Virus record (IMG/VR): IMGVR_UViG_3300034093_001036
Location: 1 to 64,000 of that record
Strand: one strand, 5' to 3'
DNA length: 64,000 bases
From: a virus
In this document: one piece after another, positions 56,572 to 64,000 of the stretch
How positions within the stretch are numbered: position 1 is the stretch's first letter
Layout: every line of letters starts with the position of its first letter
The notes under the pieces: generated by a model
Database searches by the model: none
What the model was told of the DNA's origin: nothing
Seen by the model: the letters and a program-made list of their open reading frames with translations, nothing else
Position numbers and translations under genes: made by a program

Positions 56572-57306
56572 CTATTCATATTTGCGCTGCTCCCAGATTT
56601 CATTTTTATATATTCCGCCATTTGGTTTTCTATAAATTTGATAATTTTCTATTGATTGCTTCATTAGTTCAACTGCATTATCTTGTTCTATTATTTCAGA
56701 AGTCCAGGATTCTCTTTTAAATGGCAGAAGTTGAGCATACGCTGTTCCTTCTGGAATAATTCCCTCAAAACCCTCACAAATAAAAAATGGAAAAGATCCA
56801 GGCATATGAACTTTGTCGTTATCCACAATTCCACTAGTTAGCAAAAATGGTAACTCAAATCTGTTAAATGGCTGAGTATACAATACGCTATATCCTGGAG
56901 GAGTTTTTATTTGCCAATCTGGAGTTATTGCAAAATGATTTTTGTAATACCCGCGGGGGTGTTCAAACTGTGGCATTTCTGATCTTTCTTCAATTAAGTT
57001 TTTATATTTTACATTTAAAACTTTATGTTTTAGTCCAGAATCAGTCATGTAGAATTCAATATCGCAAGGAAGATTAAGAGAATATCCAGAACCCATAATA
57101 TCAAAAATTGCAGGACAGGCCTTCCATGTAGGAACTTTTCCACCATCCTCTCCTATATAAAAAGAATTGTCTGTTGGTAATTTTGCAAACCTATCTGCTT
57201 TTCTAAACCATTCAGGAATTGTTCTTATAATTGGAGTTGGTGCTGACTTGCTTTCTTTTGAAAGCCAAATTTTATTTGCAATAAAAGATATTTTTTCTGT
57301 ATTCAT
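56572..57306 (-). CDS. DUF6065-like (dUTPase-like fold) protein
   Basis: TWKACP, TPPGYS, SGIVDND, IPEGTAYAQLLPFKRE. Confidence 0.55.
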   Translation of the reverse strand: MNTEKISFIANKIWLSKESKSAPTPIIRTIPEWFRKADRFAKLPTDNSFYIGEDGGKVPTWKACPAIFDIMGSGYSLNLPCDIEFYMTDSGLKHKVLNVKYKNLIEERSEMPQFEHPRGYYKNHFAITPDWQIKTPPGYSVLYTQPFNRFELPFLLTSGIVDNDKVHMPGSFPFFICEGFEGIIPEGTAYAQLLPFKRESWTSEIIEQDNAVELMKQSIENYQIYRKPNGGIYKNEIWEQRKYE

Positions 57307-58016
57307 TACTTGTCACTTTGATATTTATTAATTGAAAGTTTTAAGGATTTTACTTCGTGCTCTCCAAGGCTATTTCCTAAATGGTCAACAGCATCTCTAT
57401 AAAAGTTTGTCCATTGTCCAGACTGAGTTATTTCTCCAGAGGCTTTTCCATATTCAGAAAGATTCTTTTCAAAATCTTGATCTTTTACATAGTCGTACAG
57501 ATTTACTTCTGTTGCTTGGAGTTTTTTTAAACTAATTGGCATAATACAAACAATTGGTGTTCCTGCTGGTATTGTTATTACTTCATTTGCCCTTGTTATT
57601 TTCCATGCATATGGAAGTGGAGCAAGATGGACAACTGGACTAATTACACTTGAGAATCCTTGAACACCATCAATAAATTGATTTGGAACTGGAAGGAGCA
57701 GTAGACTAATCTCATCAGTACTTTTAAAATATAAACCACTATTAAAACTTATAGTTCCGTTAGCCCTGTTTGCATGAACATACTTTTCTCCAGAAAGAAT
57801 TTCAAGGTCTTCAGATCTAGAGTTTGGATCTGTTCCTTTCCAAATAAAAGAAATGTCTTCTGGAAAAGAAAATGTCCATCCTGTTGTGTTTGCCAACGAT
57901 ACTGGGAAGCAATGATAGGCGTGTTTGTCAAAAGTTTCATCCATCCAGTTTCTTCTAACTTTTAAAGTATCAAAAGTTACATCAGAATGTGGTGTTTGAT
58001 AAACATCTATAGACAT
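57306..58016 (-). CDS. DUF6065 family protein
   Basis: RNWMDET...HAYHCFPVSLANTTGW, IPAGTPIVCIMP. Confidence 0.7.
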   Translation of the reverse strand: MSIDVYQTPHSDVTFDTLKVRRNWMDETFDKHAYHCFPVSLANTTGWTFSFPEDISFIWKGTDPNSRSEDLEILSGEKYVHANRANGTISFNSGLYFKSTDEISLLLLPVPNQFIDGVQGFSSVISPVVHLAPLPYAWKITRANEVITIPAGTPIVCIMPISLKKLQATEVNLYDYVKDQDFEKNLSEYGKASGEITQSGQWTNFYRDAVDHLGNSLGEHEVKSLKLSINKYQSDK

Positions 58017-58017
58017 G

Positions 58018-58704
58018 TTAGTTTCCTGTTTCTAAAAACATCTCTGGTCCATGGAATTTTGCGCTGTAGTCTAGCATTGTTACAATTGAATATTTAGTTC
58101 CGCTAGTAACTGGCATTGCTCTATGAGAATACATATATGTTGATGGGAAAATATACAAATCTCCAGCACGTGGTTTTACTAATAAATCTTGGTGTTGAAA
58201 ATGTAAACCACCGTCGACGTAGTCGTCATTTGGGTATGCAACCAAAGACACTGTACAGTTATAAGAAAATCCATGATCATGATGATATTGGAAATGCTGA
58301 CCCTCATGGTATCTAATAAAATTCATTGCTTCCCAAAACCTTAGTTCTGCAATATTAAACATTTTACGATAGTGCTCAACTGCTGGACTTTTTCTATCGT
58401 AGCAGTCTTGCCAAAGTTGTTGAAGCGCTAAAGATGCTTCTCCTGGTCTTTGTGCCATATCTTTCTTTGTAAACTTAAAGTCAACACAATCTCTATATTC
58501 TGGCATGCTTTCTTGATAGCCAACAAACGCTTCCATCCAGTGAAATGGGTTGCTTTGGTCTTCAAGAACAGACTCTAATCTGTTAATAATATCCAGTTCT
58601 TTAGGTAAAACATCTCTATAGACAAAAATTCCACTCCCTAGATCTTCAAAAGACGACCAGGTTTGCTCTATAGGGGTTGTCTCAGTTTGAACATGTTTTT
58701 GCAT
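58018..58704 (-). CDS. 2OG-Fe(II) oxygenase, P4H-like
   Basis: HHD...YPNDDYVDGG...HRA...KY. Confidence 0.9.
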   Translation of the reverse strand: MQKHVQTETTPIEQTWSSFEDLGSGIFVYRDVLPKELDIINRLESVLEDQSNPFHWMEAFVGYQESMPEYRDCVDFKFTKKDMAQRPGEASLALQQLWQDCYDRKSPAVEHYRKMFNIAELRFWEAMNFIRYHEGQHFQYHHDHGFSYNCTVSLVAYPNDDYVDGGLHFQHQDLLVKPRAGDLYIFPSTYMYSHRAMPVTSGTKYSIVTMLDYSAKFHGPEMFLETGN

Positions 58705-58739
58705 TTTTTCCTGCTTTCTACTATGTATATATTATAGCA

Positions 58740-59444
58740 CTAGTTATTCTTATGATGTAAATCGTTATAGTCTGTCATAATTACAACAGAATACTTTATA
58801 CCCTGCAATAATTCACAAGAGGCATGCTCATAAACAAAATTTGATGGGAAAAGAACAATGTCTCCAGCCTGGGGCTTAATCTTTAATTCTTGTCTTGGAA
58901 ACTCTAATTCTCCACCAACATAGTCATCATTAAGATATAGTATTGCAGATATTGTACATGCATAGAATGGGCCATGGTCACCATGAAGTTTAAAATATTT
59001 CCCAGGTAGATACTTAACAAAATTAAAGGCTTCTTTGTATTTCATCTGAAGATGCCATAAAGACTCATAATCATTTAGGCAGACATCTAATGCGTCTTCT
59101 ACCTCTTTGTGTATGTCAAACATGTCTTGATTAAAAGATATCCCAGACTTTCCAAGCATATCTCTTTTATATTTTATATCAATGCAGTTCCTAACATAAT
59201 CTAAATTTTCTACATCATTAACCATTGCTGTAGACCAAGAAAGGTTACAGTCTGGATCGTTTGCTGAGTTTTCTAGTCTTTTAATTATACTATCACACTG
59301 GCTTCTATTTATGGCATTTTTATATACATTAATACCGTAGCCAATATTTAAAACCTCTATGTTATTTGACATTGATCTAGACTTTAGCCTACTGTCTGCT
59401 TTTTCTAATCTTGGTAAATCAAGCCACCCAAAGTTATTTGTCAT
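58740..59444 (-). CDS. 2OG-Fe(II) oxygenase, P4H-like
   Basis: HGD...YLNDDYVGG...HAS...KY. Confidence 0.9.
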   Translation of the reverse strand: MTNNFGWLDLPRLEKADSRLKSRSMSNNIEVLNIGYGINVYKNAINRSQCDSIIKRLENSANDPDCNLSWSTAMVNDVENLDYVRNCIDIKYKRDMLGKSGISFNQDMFDIHKEVEDALDVCLNDYESLWHLQMKYKEAFNFVKYLPGKYFKLHGDHGPFYACTISAILYLNDDYVGGELEFPRQELKIKPQAGDIVLFPSNFVYEHASCELLQGIKYSVVIMTDYNDLHHKNN

Positions 59445-59488
59445 TCTAATATTATAGCATATCTACATATTTATACAAAATATTAATT

Positions 59489-60166
59489 TTAAATTTGATA
59501 TATGTAAATTTCTGCAAAATCATAAATTGGATCTTTTTTAAGCAATTCTTTAAAAATATAATCATTTTCAAAATGAAAAACAAAAAAGGATTTAGATTTT
59601 GATAAAATTTCCCATTTATCTAATATTAATTTATTAAAAATTTCAGGCAGCAATGGGTAATAAAAATAATAAACACACTTTTCTTCTGAAAAATGATAAT
59701 CATTTATATCACTATTTATAAAATCAACTTCTTTATCTATTTCTATATTAATTGTTTTTAAATTATTTAAAGCAATATTGTTGAATTGATCGTCTATCTC
59801 TACACCTACATACTTCTTATACGGTGCATTTGAGATTAACTGATGTAAAATTGTTTTTCCCTTACCGCTACCTATATCTAAAAAGGTATACTCCTCAATT
59901 CCTTCAATATCTTTCATAAAATTATTCACCATGTCTAAAATTTTTAAAGGTGAGTTCTGTAAACCCATTGATCCTGGAAACCTATCATTATTATCAATAC
60001 TGCCTGGCACATATTCACCAGAACCATCTGAGGCTAAAGGAGTTGGATGCCAAGTGTCTACATTATATTTTTCATCAAAAAATTTGAATAATGAAGCGTC
60101 TTCTCTTCTAATTTTTTTTAATACATCTAAATTCTTTATTGTACTTTTGTCTACACCTTTATGCAT
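59489..60166 (-). CDS. Class I SAM-dependent methyltransferase
   Basis: FLDIGSGKG, GVEID, YFYYP. Confidence 0.85.
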   Translation of the reverse strand: MHKGVDKSTIKNLDVLKKIRREDASLFKFFDEKYNVDTWHPTPLASDGSGEYVPGSIDNNDRFPGSMGLQNSPLKILDMVNNFMKDIEGIEEYTFLDIGSGKGKTILHQLISNAPYKKYVGVEIDDQFNNIALNNLKTINIEIDKEVDFINSDINDYHFSEEKCVYYFYYPLLPEIFNKLILDKWEILSKSKSFFVFHFENDYIFKELLKKDPIYDFAEIYIYQI

Positions 60167-60746
60167 TTTTTGCTCCTAAATATTTGTTTGGCATGATATC
60201 AATTATAGCATGGATTCTGTCATGGTCACTATCGTTTATTACTGAGTGTGGAATAATATTATTAATCTCATACCAATTTCCAACCTCAAGATACTTTTTT
60301 TCTTCAAATACTTCAAATATGACTTTTGGATTTGTTATTAGTGGAATATGTATTCTTCTACCGAGTTGTAGCATTACCCCGCCATCAACGTGAGATTTTA
60401 TTCCAGAGCGCTTATTCATTTGAATTATCTCACTCCTAATAACTTTGCCATCGTACAAGTTTTCTAAATATTCATAAATAGCATTAAGGCTTTCATTAGA
60501 TTGTTTATTTTTAAAATAATTTATATCATAAGATGTATTGCCTTGTCCAATTTCCCAATGATAAGACATAAACCTTAGTTGAAACATTTTTGTATCTTTG
60601 TGCGTTGCCAACTTGTCTTGACGAGAAGTATCCAGTAGCCACTCATTTTCAAAAGAGTTAACTTCTTGAATTATTGAAGATAGATCAACTGGTAAAGATC
60701 CATATTGATAGTTCCAAGAAGTATTCTTATCTGGTAGTTTTAACAT
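60159..60746 (-). CDS. Aspartyl/asparaginyl beta-hydroxylase-family oxygenase
   Basis: SHVD, RIHIPLITN, HSVIN, RIHAIID. Confidence 0.85.
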   Translation of the reverse strand: MLKLPDKNTSWNYQYGSLPVDLSSIIQEVNSFENEWLLDTSRQDKLATHKDTKMFQLRFMSYHWEIGQGNTSYDINYFKNKQSNESLNAIYEYLENLYDGKVIRSEIIQMNKRSGIKSHVDGGVMLQLGRRIHIPLITNPKVIFEVFEEKKYLEVGNWYEINNIIPHSVINDSDHDRIHAIIDIMPNKYLGAKNA

Positions 60747-61413
60747 AATCGTAAATTTCCATATCTAAATTGTTTAATTCTTCAATTTTATTTTTCATTG
60801 AATCTGATATTTTAATAGTTTGAAAATTTTCATTAATAGCATTTTTATTTGAAAAACTATAAAACCCATATGCCTGATAACATAGATCATTTAACCTTGA
60901 TATAAAAGATGAATGATTGTCTAATGTATCTATTAGAGCCATTGAGTCTATAAGGTCTTTTACTTCTTTTATATCTACGCTACCTTCTTCAAGGCACCAA
61001 CTTTCATTGGCTCTTTGAATTCCGTGGTCTAAAGAATTATAAAAATCTTCGTTTAAACTTTTATTTAAACTTCTAGCCTGAAGGTTATGGTGTTTTGAAT
61101 TTTCCACCCATTTTTCAAGTTGAGCCTCTAAGTGAGCACCTTTAAAAGATGGATGTAAATAAATAAAGTTGCTTATAAATCTATCTAATGGATTTCTAAC
61201 CAAGCCTATATTTATTAAGTCGTCTCTATACTTTAATGCAGTCAGACCAAAGTGCCCTGAAATAAACCGTTTATCAACAAAGGTTTTTGGAAAAACCTCT
61301 CCGTGGTTTGTAGCAAAGTATGGAATCTTCCTAATCTTTAGATCATTAACAATATGAGTCTTTATATATATACCCGAACATCTTGGGATATGTATATGAT
61401 TTATTGAACTCAT
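60727..61413 (-). CDS. Sulfotransferase-family protein
   Basis: HIHIPRCSG, ISGHF, VRNPLDRFISNF, LNNLDMEIY. Confidence 0.8.
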   Translation of the reverse strand: MSSINHIHIPRCSGIYIKTHIVNDLKIRKIPYFATNHGEVFPKTFVDKRFISGHFGLTALKYRDDLINIGLVRNPLDRFISNFIYLHPSFKGAHLEAQLEKWVENSKHHNLQARSLNKSLNEDFYNSLDHGIQRANESWCLEEGSVDIKEVKDLIDSMALIDTLDNHSSFISRLNDLCYQAYGFYSFSNKNAINENFQTIKISDSMKNKIEELNNLDMEIYDYVKTTR

Positions 61414-61414
61414 A

Positions 61415-62779
61415 CTACTGAGAATCTCTGATAGTTAAGCCTTGGAAGGCACCCTTCTTATTATGAGAGATTAGATCTCCTGCAATAAAGAGTGAATAAG
61501 GATTTACAGTGATGTCATAAACATCTGTTGTTTCATCAATATATTCAACAACTTCAACAAGGGTATCAACTGCTTGATTATTGATATCGGATACTAGGTA
61601 GTCTCCAACTTTAACGACGCCAGCCTGTACGAATGCATAGACTCCATCTCTCTTAACAAGCATCAAGTGCTCCATAGAGAATCGTTTTTCGTTGGTGCTA
61701 TTGAATGCTACTGTAGTTGCAACATCTCTAGCCTTGATTGCTCCGATAACTGTTTCAACAACTGATGATCCAGTTAGAGTATCAGATACCCATGTCTCAG
61801 CAAAATCAACAGATGAGTTATCTGGTAATTCATTGAAACTGTAGGATACTAGACTTTGTCCAATAGCCAGGTCTCTTGCTTTAACATATCCACTAGTTGT
61901 TCTTACAAGAACATCACCTTGTACGCAGAATACTGGTGGGAAGAACGGACAGAATACTGGTGGGAAGAACGGACAGAATACTGGTGGGAAGAACGGACAA
62001 AAACGTGGTGGGAAGAACGGACAGAATACTGGTGGGAAGAACGGTGGGAAGAATGGGAAGAACGGACAAAAACGTGGTGGGAAGAACGGTGGGAAGAACG
62101 GTGGGAAGAATGGGAAGAACGGTGGGAAGAATGGTGGGAAGAATGGGAAGAACGGTGGGAAAAATGGAGGGAAGAAAGGAGGTGTTGTTGTAACGTTGTT
62201 AGAACTATTACCGTATAGTCCATCTCCATTAGCATTTATAGCAAGAACCTGATAACTCTGTGATGTATCTCCAGTTTCTGCTACAGTTGTTGACAAAACA
62301 TTTCCTACAACATAAACTGGACCATCAGAAGACTTTACACGATATCCAGTAATTGCAGATCCGCCAGTTGCAGGTGCTGTCCAAGATACTGTATCTAAGT
62401 TAACGGCTGTAGTTGCTGTTGGAGCATTTGGAGCAGCAGGAACTGTTGTTGCCAATACTCCTGCTGATGCAGAAGATGCTGCTGATGTTCCCGCAGCATT
62501 AGTTCCTGTTACTGTAAATGTGTAAGAAGTATTTGATGCAAGACCATCAACGGTAATTGGAGAGGCAGAAGAACTTCCTGTAAACCCTCCTGGAGAAGAT
62601 GTTACTGTAAATGATGTTGCTGCTGGAGAATCTCCTGGTAATGAAAAACTAACACTTATGGCACCATTGTTAAACGCACGTGAAGTTCCTACGTTTGTGC
62701 CTACAACAGATATGGGTGGTTTTGGCTCTAATGAGTCATTCTGTTGTAAAGATTTAGATCCTAGTTCTTTTTTTGCCAT
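61415..62779 (-). CDS. Two FN3 domains, an 85-aa Pro/Phe repeat and a C-terminal Hint domain
   Basis: FN3: GLASNTSYTFTVTGTNAAG and WTAPATGGSAITGY...AINANG. Hint: CVQGDVLV, SMEH, VYDITV, FIAGDLISHN. Confidence 0.88.
   Translation of the reverse strand: MAKKELGSKSLQQNDSLEPKPPISVVGTNVGTSRAFNNGAISVSFSLPGDSPAATSFTVTSSPGGFTGSSSASPITVDGLASNTSYTFTVTGTNAAGTSAASSASAGVLATTVPAAPNAPTATTAVNLDTVSWTAPATGGSAITGYRVKSSDGPVYVVGNVLSTTVAETGDTSQSYQVLAINANGDGLYGNSSNNVTTTPPFFPPFFPPFFPFFPPFFPPFFPFFPPFFPPFFPPRFCPFFPFFPPFFPPVFCPFFPPRFCPFFPPVFCPFFPPVFCPFFPPVFCVQGDVLVRTTSGYVKARDLAIGQSLVSYSFNELPDNSSVDFAETWVSDTLTGSSVVETVIGAIKARDVATTVAFNSTNEKRFSMEHLMLVKRDGVYAFVQAGVVKVGDYLVSDINNQAVDTLVEVVEYIDETTDVYDITVNPYSLFIAGDLISHNKKGAFQGLTIRDSQ
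61460..61927 (-). other. Hint (intein-like/BIL) autoprocessing domain, 156 aa
   Basis: Cys1 block A, S-x-x-H block B, VYD block F, terminal His-Asn followed by Lys. No endonuclease domain. Confidence 0.85.
61928..62182 (-). repeat. Coding tandem repeat of 9-, 12- and 24-nt units encoding PFF, PPFF and CPFFPP(V/R)F
   Basis: Plus strand shows gggaagaacggt and ggtgggaagaacggacagaatact units. Confidence 0.97.
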
Positions 62780-62809
62780 TTTTTATTTCTCCAATTTTCT
62801 TTGTATTTT

Positions 62810-64000
62810 TTATGCTGTGAGATCTCCAACAACAACCCAAGAGTCTGTTGCTCTCTTCATTAATGTTGCTGATGACCACTGTGTACGAAGTTTTAATCCT
62901 GGAGTTGCATTAACTGTTACTCCTACTGCTCCAGCAATTGTTACTTGTCCCGCACCAGTTTGAAGGATATCAATTGATGATCCTATTGGAAAGGCTGTTG
63001 TTGCATTTGTTGGAATTGTAACTGTTACTCCAGTAGCAGAAGAAACTTCAATTAATGAATCTCTTTCATTAAGTGCTGCAAGTGTGTAGCCTGCTGTTTT
63101 TTGTATAATTGTTGTACGTGATGGAACGCCTTCTTTTGTTTGTGTTCCATCTGTGAATTGTACTCCGCCTGCTGGAACAGTTATTCCTACGCCAGTAAAT
63201 ATTGGGGAAGCAAGTGGTGCATATGTATTTGCTGCTGTTGATGAAGCAAGTTTTAGGTCTAAAGCAGTTTGTGTAGCAGTTGAAACTGGCTTGTTAGCGT
63301 CGGAAGTATTTTCTACGTTTCCAAGACCAACCATTGTTGCTGAAATACCTGAAACTGTTCCACTAAATGCTGGGGAACTAAGTGGTGCATACCCTGAAAT
63401 GCTTGCGCCTGTAGGAATTGTTACTTCTCCAGTAAATGTTGGTGAGGCTAGTGGTGCATACCCTGAAATGCTTGCGCCTGCAGGAATTGTTACTGATCCA
63501 GTAAATGTTGGTGCATGCAATGGTGCCTTATAACCAAGTACTGTGTGTGTAGCAGTTGAAACTGGCTTATCTGCATCTGCTGTATTATCAACAGATCCTA
63601 GGCCTACCATTGACTTTGTTACACCAGACACAGTTCCTGTGAATGTTGGTGAAGCAATTGGTGCCTTAGCAGCAAGGTCAGATGTTAAACCTGAAATCTT
63701 AGACTGTGCAATTGCGGCTGATGCGTTAACGTCTGCGTCTACAATTGTTCCATCAAGTATCAGCGATGAAGTTATTGCCCCAGTTGAAATAGAAACTTCG
63801 TTACCTGATACAGTTACTCCAGTTCCTGCTGTAATTGTTCCTGAACCTGAGAACTGGAATACATCAATGTTATCCGTTCCAACAACAAATGTTGCAGGGT
63901 CTGCAACTACCTGAATCCATCCTGTTCCAGCGTTTGTTCCATCTTGTACGAATATGTATGCGCCTGGAATCTCTGATGCTTCATCACAATATGTACAACG
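62810..64000 (-). CDS. Tail fibre protein, 5' partial
   Basis: Frame is open from 64000. APLASPTFTG repeats, two GLGxVxNTxDAxKPVSTAT units, C-terminal AFPIGSSIDILQTGAGQV...WVVVGDL domain. Confidence 0.85.
   Translation of the reverse strand, partial: RCTYCDEASEIPGAYIFVQDGTNAGTGWIQVVADPATFVVGTDNIDVFQFSGSGTITAGTGVTVSGNEVSISTGAITSSLILDGTIVDADVNASAAIAQSKISGLTSDLAAKAPIASPTFTGTVSGVTKSMVGLGSVDNTADADKPVSTATHTVLGYKAPLHAPTFTGSVTIPAGASISGYAPLASPTFTGEVTIPTGASISGYAPLSSPAFSGTVSGISATMVGLGNVENTSDANKPVSTATQTALDLKLASSTAANTYAPLASPIFTGVGITVPAGGVQFTDGTQTKEGVPSRTTIIQKTAGYTLAALNERDSLIEVSSATGVTVTIPTNATTAFPIGSSIDILQTGAGQVTIAGAVGVTVNATPGLKLRTQWSSATLMKRATDSWVVVGDLTA

Follow-up and report, generated by a model that had tools for sequence, protein, structure and literature searches.

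The reiterated Phe|Cys junction upstream of a phage Hint domain is probably a coincidence of register between a Cys-type repeat and a bacterial-intein-like module

Type-A bacterial-intein-like (BIL) domains are described as forming a thioester, cyclising their Asn and undergoing aminolysis by the freed amine, with cleavage products said to dominate (PMC4031507), and BIL2 of Tetrahymena becomes linked to the epsilon-amine of a Lys through an isopeptide bond (PMC8616854). The motif Pro-Pro-Phe-Phe is known from the cyclic peptides cyclolinopeptide A and antamanide, as a sequence-only reading of the DNA studied here had pointed out and as the abstract of PMC9266943 confirms. The gene in question lies on the minus strand of a 64,000-nucleotide stretch of viral DNA (the window; positions 1 to 64,000 of IMG/VR record IMGVR_UViG_3300034093_001036) and encodes a 454-residue protein in which two FN3 domains are followed by a Pro/Phe repeat, a BIL-like Hint domain and a short tail. 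The sequence-only reading had noted that the Phe|Cys junction of the Hint is reiterated in octamers upstream (61460-62070, that is, from the codon of Asn440 to the upstream octamers), and had proposed that Cys residues of the repeat could capture the Hint thioester or that the thioester could attach the FN3 protein to another molecule.

All five upstream copies are present in the translation: Cys occurs at residues 238, 253, 261, 269 and 277 and again at 285 (spacing 15, 8, 8, 8 and 8), each time after P-P-[R/V]-F, and Cys285 is residue 1 of the Hint (C-V-Q-G-D...). This reiteration is that of a DNA tandem repeat and thus not a chance recurrence. Tandem Repeats Finder scored 61926-62131 as 8.8 copies of a 24-nt period; octamers 262-269 and 270-277 share one 24-nt DNA sequence, from which octamer 278-285 deviates by a single base, the third of its final codon, in agreement with the slippage amplification that had been suggested. 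All five repeat Cys are encoded by TGT and Cys1 of the Hint by TGC. The explanation considered probable is a coincidence of register, in which a Cys repeat specific to one clade was multiplied by slippage and a Hint module was fused to it in frame. The junction would look reiterated because a Hint initiated by Cys1 sits in frame right behind repeat units that end in Cys; it would follow that the repeat Cys did not arise by copying the Hint nucleophile and that the Hint does not need them.

The relationship between repeat Cys and Hint was traced in relatives of the whole protein, of which 1857 were found at E<=1e-3 among 8000 scored candidates, with the best 120 examined. A Hint is present in 103 of the 120; its start was located in 101 of these, and the two in which it could not be located were left out of the Cys count. 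Between the start of the repeat and residue 1 of the Hint, 99 of the 101 proteins have no Cys; a single Cys occurs in one of the other two proteins and a pair, directly before Cys1, in the second. The check set in advance, whether Hint-bearing homologs keep the internal Cys, therefore went against the capture proposal. A similar picture emerged from an exhaustive search with the Hint itself across 1.84 billion representatives (343 clusters at E<=1e-3; best 150 examined). Cys1 could be located in 94 of these 150 representatives (36 N-truncated and 20 without a recognisable Cys1 were excluded), and 71 of the 94 have no Cys within 60 residues upstream of it. Among the 17 with a Pro/aromatic-rich upstream stretch, none has at least two upstream Cys.

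Conversely, IMG/VR was scanned with two degenerate patterns for DNA that encodes a linked pair of F-C-P units. The scans gave 6 and 14 stretches, two of them shared, and hence 18 loci, each with 3-12 F-C-P units. Seventeen of the 18 lie in readable FN3-FN3-repeat genes (one of them, L020, cut by a contig end), and the remaining one (L004) is a 54-residue repeat fragment with no FN3 in frame. None of the 18 carries a Hint, and tblastn of the Hint against these loci was negative. The Cys state is close to all-or-none per protein: at the unit position after P-P-x-F, Cys was counted 97 times and Gly 3 times in 12 distinct Cys-type sequences, versus 140 F-G-P and 5 F-C-P in 119 other homologs. A FastTree phylogeny of the FN3 part (129 rows, including the 111 of the 121 proteins P0001-P0121 that have 150-230 residues before the repeat, with L004 and L020 left out) placed the window protein in a clade of six with support 99. 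Its five clade-mates are all Hint-less, three of them Cys-type, and 17 of the 18 Cys-type rows on the tree have no Hint. Because of the Hint-less loci, the homolog counts and this tree placement, the Cys state is, on the sequences compared, a property of one clade's repeat and independent of the Hint.

The Hint-less relatives occupy the same slot, with a fibre-like gene, an FN3-repeat gene, two prolyl-hydroxylase-like genes and a DUF6065 gene. Among the 17 Hint-less proteins of the best 120 homologs, 10 have Cys in or after the repeat, nine of these as Cys-rich end pieces. Ends that bear Cys and ends that bear a Hint are near-exclusive (repeat Cys in 2 of 101 Hint-bearing homologs; all 18 Cys-type loci Hint-less), an observation that consists of counts over mutually related rows (P0002-P0121, L003-L020).

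A second Hint gene was found in the same phage, 11 kb beyond the window end (G000:C1 ~72700-74430; L002 1498-3219; minus strand; Hint at 72706-73215), and two open reading frames resembling 2-oxoglutarate (2OG) oxygenases follow it. The 573-residue paralog consists of Pro/Thr repeats, two Cys-bounded modules of ~60 residues, a Trp-rich Cys motif, a short Pro/Phe repeat, a spacer and the Hint. Its Pro/Phe repeat holds three Cys octamers, near-identical in DNA to those of the window gene, and its Hint shares 148 of 170 residues with the window Hint. Over the Hint plus tail, the two genes are 86% identical in DNA, with some blocks fully identical, which is a signature of recombination between them. 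The octamers are not adjacent to the paralog's Hint: a 15-residue Pro/Thr spacer precedes a Gly|Cys junction, and 23 residues separate the last repeat Cys from Cys1. An ortholog of the paralog from another sample (P0125, 916 residues) has the same Hint (162 of 170 residues) and zero F-C-P units. On the simplest reading of these comparisons, exchange would have run in both directions, the Hint type being native to the paralog lineage and the Cys octamers to the window-protein lineage.

Judged from predicted structure and motifs, the protein ends in a true Hint of the BIL kind, type-A-like. An AlphaFold2 model built on 74 relatives reached a predicted local distance difference test score (pLDDT) of 90.9 and a predicted template modelling score of 0.86. 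The best Foldseek matches to this model are Tetrahymena BIL2 (6y75, 6tmm) and the Clostridium thermocellum BIL 2lwy (E ~1e-7, probability 1.00), with many inteins and the Hedgehog domain 1at0 ranking after them; 61 PDB chains fall at E<=0.001, and those listed are all BILs, inteins or Hedgehog Hint. phmmer against PDB sequences returned the KlbA intein 2jmz (E 6.8e-5), the RadA intein and BIL 2lwy (E 0.057), with S368-M-E-H371 aligned over block B of the inteins and the terminal H-N aligned as well. The fold model, the Foldseek ranking, block B and the H-N motif thus bear out the Hint assignment of the sequence-only reading, and its description of the end (HN|K, no Cys/Ser/Thr at +1, then a 14-residue tail) is confirmed at H439-N440-K441. 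The type-A features found are a Cys nucleophile at position 1, S-x-x-H in block B, a terminal H-N and no Cys/Ser/Thr at +1. In the 74-row Hint alignment, all 55 rows that are filled at position 1 have Cys there, and 70 of the 74 rows retain His439 and 67 Asn440; the block-B His column holds H 31, Q 30, E 12 and G 1. PT-HINT of Pfam scored 13.4 bits, below its cut-off of 27.7, and by sequence the domain is a distant member of the Hint superfamily.

This Hint family is very large, as the 1857 whole-protein matches and 343 Hint clusters indicate. A word-index protein search with residues 285-454 had returned five proteins and was superseded by the exhaustive search. Among the best 150 of the 343 clusters, the Hint is nearly always the last domain and its upstream partner is a hydrophobic low-complexity repeat (Pro/Phe, Phe/Gly/Ser/Pro, Pro/Ile/Ala or poly-Pro), and 125 of the 146 rows with a covered C-terminus end in H-N. 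Within these 125, Lys stands at +1 or +2 in 114 and Cys/Ser/Thr at +1 in five; the tail after H-N has a median of 5 residues, is no longer than 20 amino acids in 116 and is a single residue in 31. The tail motif x-K-x-x-F-Q-G-[LP]-T is retained in eight of the ten closest Hints. Position -1 relative to Cys1 is occupied by various residues (G 24, F 14, S 9, P 9, A 7 and others; n=94), and in the FN3-repeat family direct fusion of the Hint behind the end of a P-x-F repeat is the rule. Hints of the same subfamily were also seen in P0122, P0128, P0131 and P0132 behind Pro plus Ile/Ala repeats (P-P-I-I-A-I-I-A type) and not behind Pro/Phe, so that the common denominator upstream is hydrophobic low complexity, not the Pro-Pro-Phe-Phe motif. 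The first residue in the 101 located Hints of the whole-protein family is Cys in 95 and Ser in six (P0041, P0085, P0091, P0097, P0099 and P0106); the Ser-starting Hints end without His-Asn, which suggests a separate, ester-forming subfamily on the same repeat proteins that performs N-cleavage only. No description of Hint-capped Pro/Phe-repeat phage proteins was found in the literature searched, a search that most subscription journals fell outside.

The coordinates of the gene and its parts are given in Table 1. Pfam fn3 matched the 454-residue protein in two stretches (E 9.5e-10; 39 bits versus a cut-off of 25). The 85-residue run from 200 to 284 is almost exclusively Pro and Phe in translation, has Tandem Repeats Finder periods of 12, 21, 24, 33, 45 and 69 nt, and shows no secondary structure in the full-length AlphaFold2 model (pLDDT 40-57); the 14-residue tail is of low to medium confidence in the AlphaFold2 models.

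Table 1. Parts of the 454-residue FN3-repeat-Hint gene, in window coordinates.
Feature	Coordinates	Strand	Basis
Whole gene: two FN3 domains, Pro/Phe repeat, Hint and 14-residue tail (454 residues plus stop)	61415..62779	-	Open reading frame list, translation
First FN3 domain, residues ~20-110	62450..62722	-	Pfam fn3; AlphaFold2 full-length pLDDT >90, all beta-strand
Second FN3 domain, residues ~118-198	62186..62428	-	Second Pfam fn3 stretch; confident beta-sandwich in full-length model
Pro/Phe repeat, residues 200-284 (P-F-F and P-P-F-F units)	61928..62182	-	Translation; Tandem Repeats Finder
Cys-type part of the repeat, residues 231-284 (Cys 238/253/261/269/277, each after P-P-[R/V]-F)	61928..62089	-	Codon layout
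Three consecutive 24-nt octamer units, residues 262-285	61925..61996	-	Codon layout; 24-nt period of Tandem Repeats Finder
Hint domain, residues 285-440, 156 residues (Cys285, S368-x-x-H371, D422, H439-N440)	61460..61927	-	phmmer, AlphaFold2, Foldseek, alignment
Tail after Asn440, 14 residues (K-K-G-A-F-Q-G-L-T...)	61418..61459	-	Conserved in closest Hint relatives

Based on these data, a sequence of events can be proposed. The clade's repeat carries P-P-x-F-C where other family members carry P-P-x-F-G, and replication slippage would have multiplied the Cys-bearing octamers. A BIL-like Hint module would have been exchanged between the window gene and the second appendage gene of the phage, and its in-frame joining would have put Cys1 at the next repeat-Cys position. 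By homology, Cys285 would make an N-to-S acyl shift at Phe284 and the thioester would be resolved by water or an amine, the Hint leaving a mature FN3-repeat protein; cyclisation of Asn440 may then, as happens in type-A BILs, set free the tail that begins with Lys or transfer it. That the Hint cuts itself off the repeat is the most likely outcome by analogy with its homologs, and the conserved H-N plus Lys, read with the BIL literature, is compatible with resolution of the thioester by an amine. In the weakest step, the repeat Cys may serve the repeat itself, for example through extracellular disulfide cross-links.

Other explanations assign the repeat Cys a closer tie to the Hint. Capture of the Phe284 thioester by a repeat Cys such as Cys277, giving eight-residue thiolactones or acyl shuttling and cyclic Pro/Phe peptides, has a geometry met only here, with five Cys, 8 or 15 residues apart, immediately upstream of Cys1, and the arrangement persists across several years of lake-water metagenomes. 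Trans-thioesterification to a nearby thiol is established chemistry and could occur here. Yet the Hint-bearing homologs lack the Cys (99 of 101), the 18 loci with F-C-P units lack the Hint, and the paralog keeps its octamers with Gly at -1 and its last Cys 23 residues away; Pro-Pro-Phe-Phe is simply the low-complexity repeat of the family, replaced by other hydrophobic repeats in relatives, and neither a cyclase nor a leader peptide nor a protease context was found. Capture is therefore regarded as highly improbable, and the sequence-only reading as a whole is only partly supported. A precursor of ribosomally synthesised cyclic peptides was likewise considered and rejected, as the reactive Cys is missing from 99 of 101 Hint-bearing relatives and present in the 18 Hint-less loci. 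The internal Cys could instead be copies of Cys1, made by slippage over a unit spanning the junction: the array does reach the first two bases of the Cys1 codon within the scored 24-nt repeat, two units are identical, and a third departs from them in nothing but the final base of the Cys codon. Such an origin is nonetheless very unlikely, since F-C-P units fill the repeats of syntenic relatives of which none has a Hint, the window protein nests among Hint-less proteins on the FN3 tree, the paralog has the units with its Hint not adjacent, and repeat Cys and Cys1 use different codons.

A thiol role of the repeat Cys in their own right, as extracellular disulfide ladders and possibly, in this phage, as a disulfide with Cys285 that acts as a redox trap of the Hint, is a tentative possibility. 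It fits the near all-or-none Cys state, its retention across three diverged clades, the Cys-rich ends of Hint-less homologs (10 of 17 with Cys after the repeat start, nine as end pieces) and the Hint-bearing homolog with two extra Cys right before Cys1, and disulfides of active-site Cys are reported to make splicing redox-sensitive in known inteins (PMC4031507). Against it, concerted evolution of the repeat can spread a single Gly-to-Cys change without selection, TGT encodes nearly all of the Cys, which is what recent homogenisation would produce, and the repeat is modelled without secondary structure; such neutral spread would be nearly as likely as disulfide stapling. A ligase-like Hint, passing the thioester to Lys441/442, to the amine freed at Asn440 or to a Lys of another virion protein and leaving a spliced or isopeptide product, is unlikely, if more plausible than either capture or Cys1 copying. 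The best structural match, BIL2, works through the Lys epsilon-amine and type-A BILs splice through aminolysis, both as cited above, and the H-N end, the Lys at +1/+2 and the tail shared by eight of the ten closest Hints are in keeping with it. However, cleavage is said to dominate among BIL products, and Hints of other subfamilies on these repeat proteins lack a terminal H-N and any tail, which leaves only the N-terminal chemistry common to all; with the single-residue tails of 31 of 125 representatives, a ligated product would be nearly the same as a cleaved one.

Several points weigh against the coincidence of register itself. The Cys-type repeat and the Hint occur together only in this phage among the samples examined, so that relatives cannot speak against a Cys-Hint interplay specific to it, and the arrangement is no transient accident, being stable in nature over years (20 runs, 2020-2024). 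The tree counts, from FastTree only, cannot separate gain of the Hint from its loss, and the pattern scans were aimed at Cys-type repeats by design. Pfam Intein_splicing scored 24.8 bits, below its curated cut-off of 35.8, and the block-B His is not universal, such that the rules of activity may differ from those of inteins. Autoprocessing we infer from fold and motifs alone, and the disulfide role is a preferred guess on a repeat modelled as disordered.

The parent record is 88.6 kb long (estimated 81% complete), of which the window is a part, and the phage genes in the window include those for DNA polymerase, portal, large terminase, head protease and ribonucleotide reductase. The upstream neighbour of the 454-residue gene is tail-fibre-like; downstream, on the same strand, lie sulfotransferase-like, Asp/Asn-hydroxylase-like (AspH-like) and methyltransferase-like genes (the last with every Pfam score under its cut-off), two 2OG oxygenase genes of the prolyl-hydroxylase type and a DUF6065 gene. 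The 454-residue protein is a fibre-region protein of an uncultured lake-water phage and putatively a part of the virion. The order tail-fibre-like, FN3-repeat, two prolyl-hydroxylase-type and DUF6065 genes is kept in relatives (L005-L008, L011 and L019, relative to window 57306-64000); the trio of sulfotransferase, AspH-like and methyltransferase genes is absent from L005, L006, L008 and L011, and L007 has a sulfotransferase-like open reading frame.

The stretch is present in 20 runs labelled lake water metagenome and dated 2020-2024, and megablast of 58000-64000 found no near-identical DNA in cultured phages. When contigs of four of the lake-water runs were aligned to 61300-62900, none spanned the Pro/Phe repeat, because contigs are interrupted both at the repeat and at the blocks that the gene has in common with the paralog. 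The sole recurrent difference was A>G at 62000 in two of the four runs, which in the reading frame is a synonymous change of a Phe codon within a P-P-R-F-C unit. In all four runs one contig departs from the window at 61434, near the gene tail, into the same loose sequence each time; this is probably where the block common to the gene and the paralog stops.

In this family, hydrophobic low-complexity repeats are capped at their very end by a BIL-like Hint, mostly with a near-invariant Lys after His-Asn. It is conceivable, if rather improbable, that Cys-based ends and Hint ends are alternative covalent tip chemistries of one appendage family and that this phage combines both, its thioester being passed on to a thiol or the conserved Lys; if so, a fibre end could be fixed or capped covalently without ATP, as a phage counterpart of the Lys-directed ligation by BIL2. 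Cyclic peptides from this gene would have meant a new route to ribosomal macrocycles, an idea whose main support is removed by the evidence above. The phage amounts to a natural experiment: in it, the same Hint follows a Phe|Cys junction in one gene and a Gly|Cys junction in another, both with Cys-type repeats, and the role of such Hints in phage appendages and the relevance of the repeat thiols can be tested there.

Compared with described systems, the domain is not a canonical intein, because Lys at +1 is no nucleophile of the required kind and there is no host protein to re-join. Nor is it of the Hedgehog type, because a sterol-recognition region is missing: the Hedgehog/Hog Hint (1at0; fold E 3.8e-5) is likewise C-terminal and processes the part N-terminal to it via a Cys1 thioester, but the phage protein has 14 residues after its Hint and no sterol context. 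The Hedgehog Hint is also not known to have the His-Asn of the phage Hint. Peptidase S74 chaperones of phage fibres and spikes are alike in outline, as C-terminal domains that detach from low-complexity fibre proteins (PMC7824862), yet their fold is unrelated and their chemistry that of a Ser/Lys dyad, and no S74 domain was among the eight Pfam families matching the 454-residue protein at E<=1.

Among cultured phages, tblastn gave 26-30% identity over residues 291-440 in 33 records, and the PHROG match is phrog_38766 (E 2.1e-8). Dickeya phage vB_DsoM_AD1 gp108 and Erwinia jumbo phages likewise have a fibrous protein ending in a Hint (gp108 at L021 1499-2938); in these phages the repeat is collagen-like (G-x-y) and not Pro/Phe, Thr stands at +1 after H-N and the tail has 10 residues. 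No virion proteome of AD1 was found in the literature searched; gp108 and its jumbo-phage relatives (32 other records) are annotated 'virion structural protein' and may provide an experimental handle on Hint-capped phage fibres.

The closest likeness is to BILs. Type-A BILs share Cys1, the terminal His-Asn, no Cys/Ser/Thr at +1, no endonuclease, a length of ~150 residues and residence in variable non-housekeeping proteins; unlike them, the phage Hint lies at the extreme C-terminus with a tail of 1-19 residues and Lys at +1/+2, and in every case a repeat of hydrophobic low complexity precedes it in the phage proteins. The C. thermocellum BIL 2lwy has the same fold (Foldseek E 1.5e-7; template modelling score to target 0.80) at 18% identity in the structural alignment. 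The top structural match is BIL2 of Tetrahymena thermophila BUBL1 (6y75, 6tmm; E 1.3e-7), at 11-12% identity. BIL2 lies between ubiquitin-like domains and conjugates them, whereas the phage Hint is flanked by a Pro/Phe repeat and a short tail; BIL2 resolves its thioester with a Lys amine (PMC8616854), and the phage family keeps a Lys just past its H-N.

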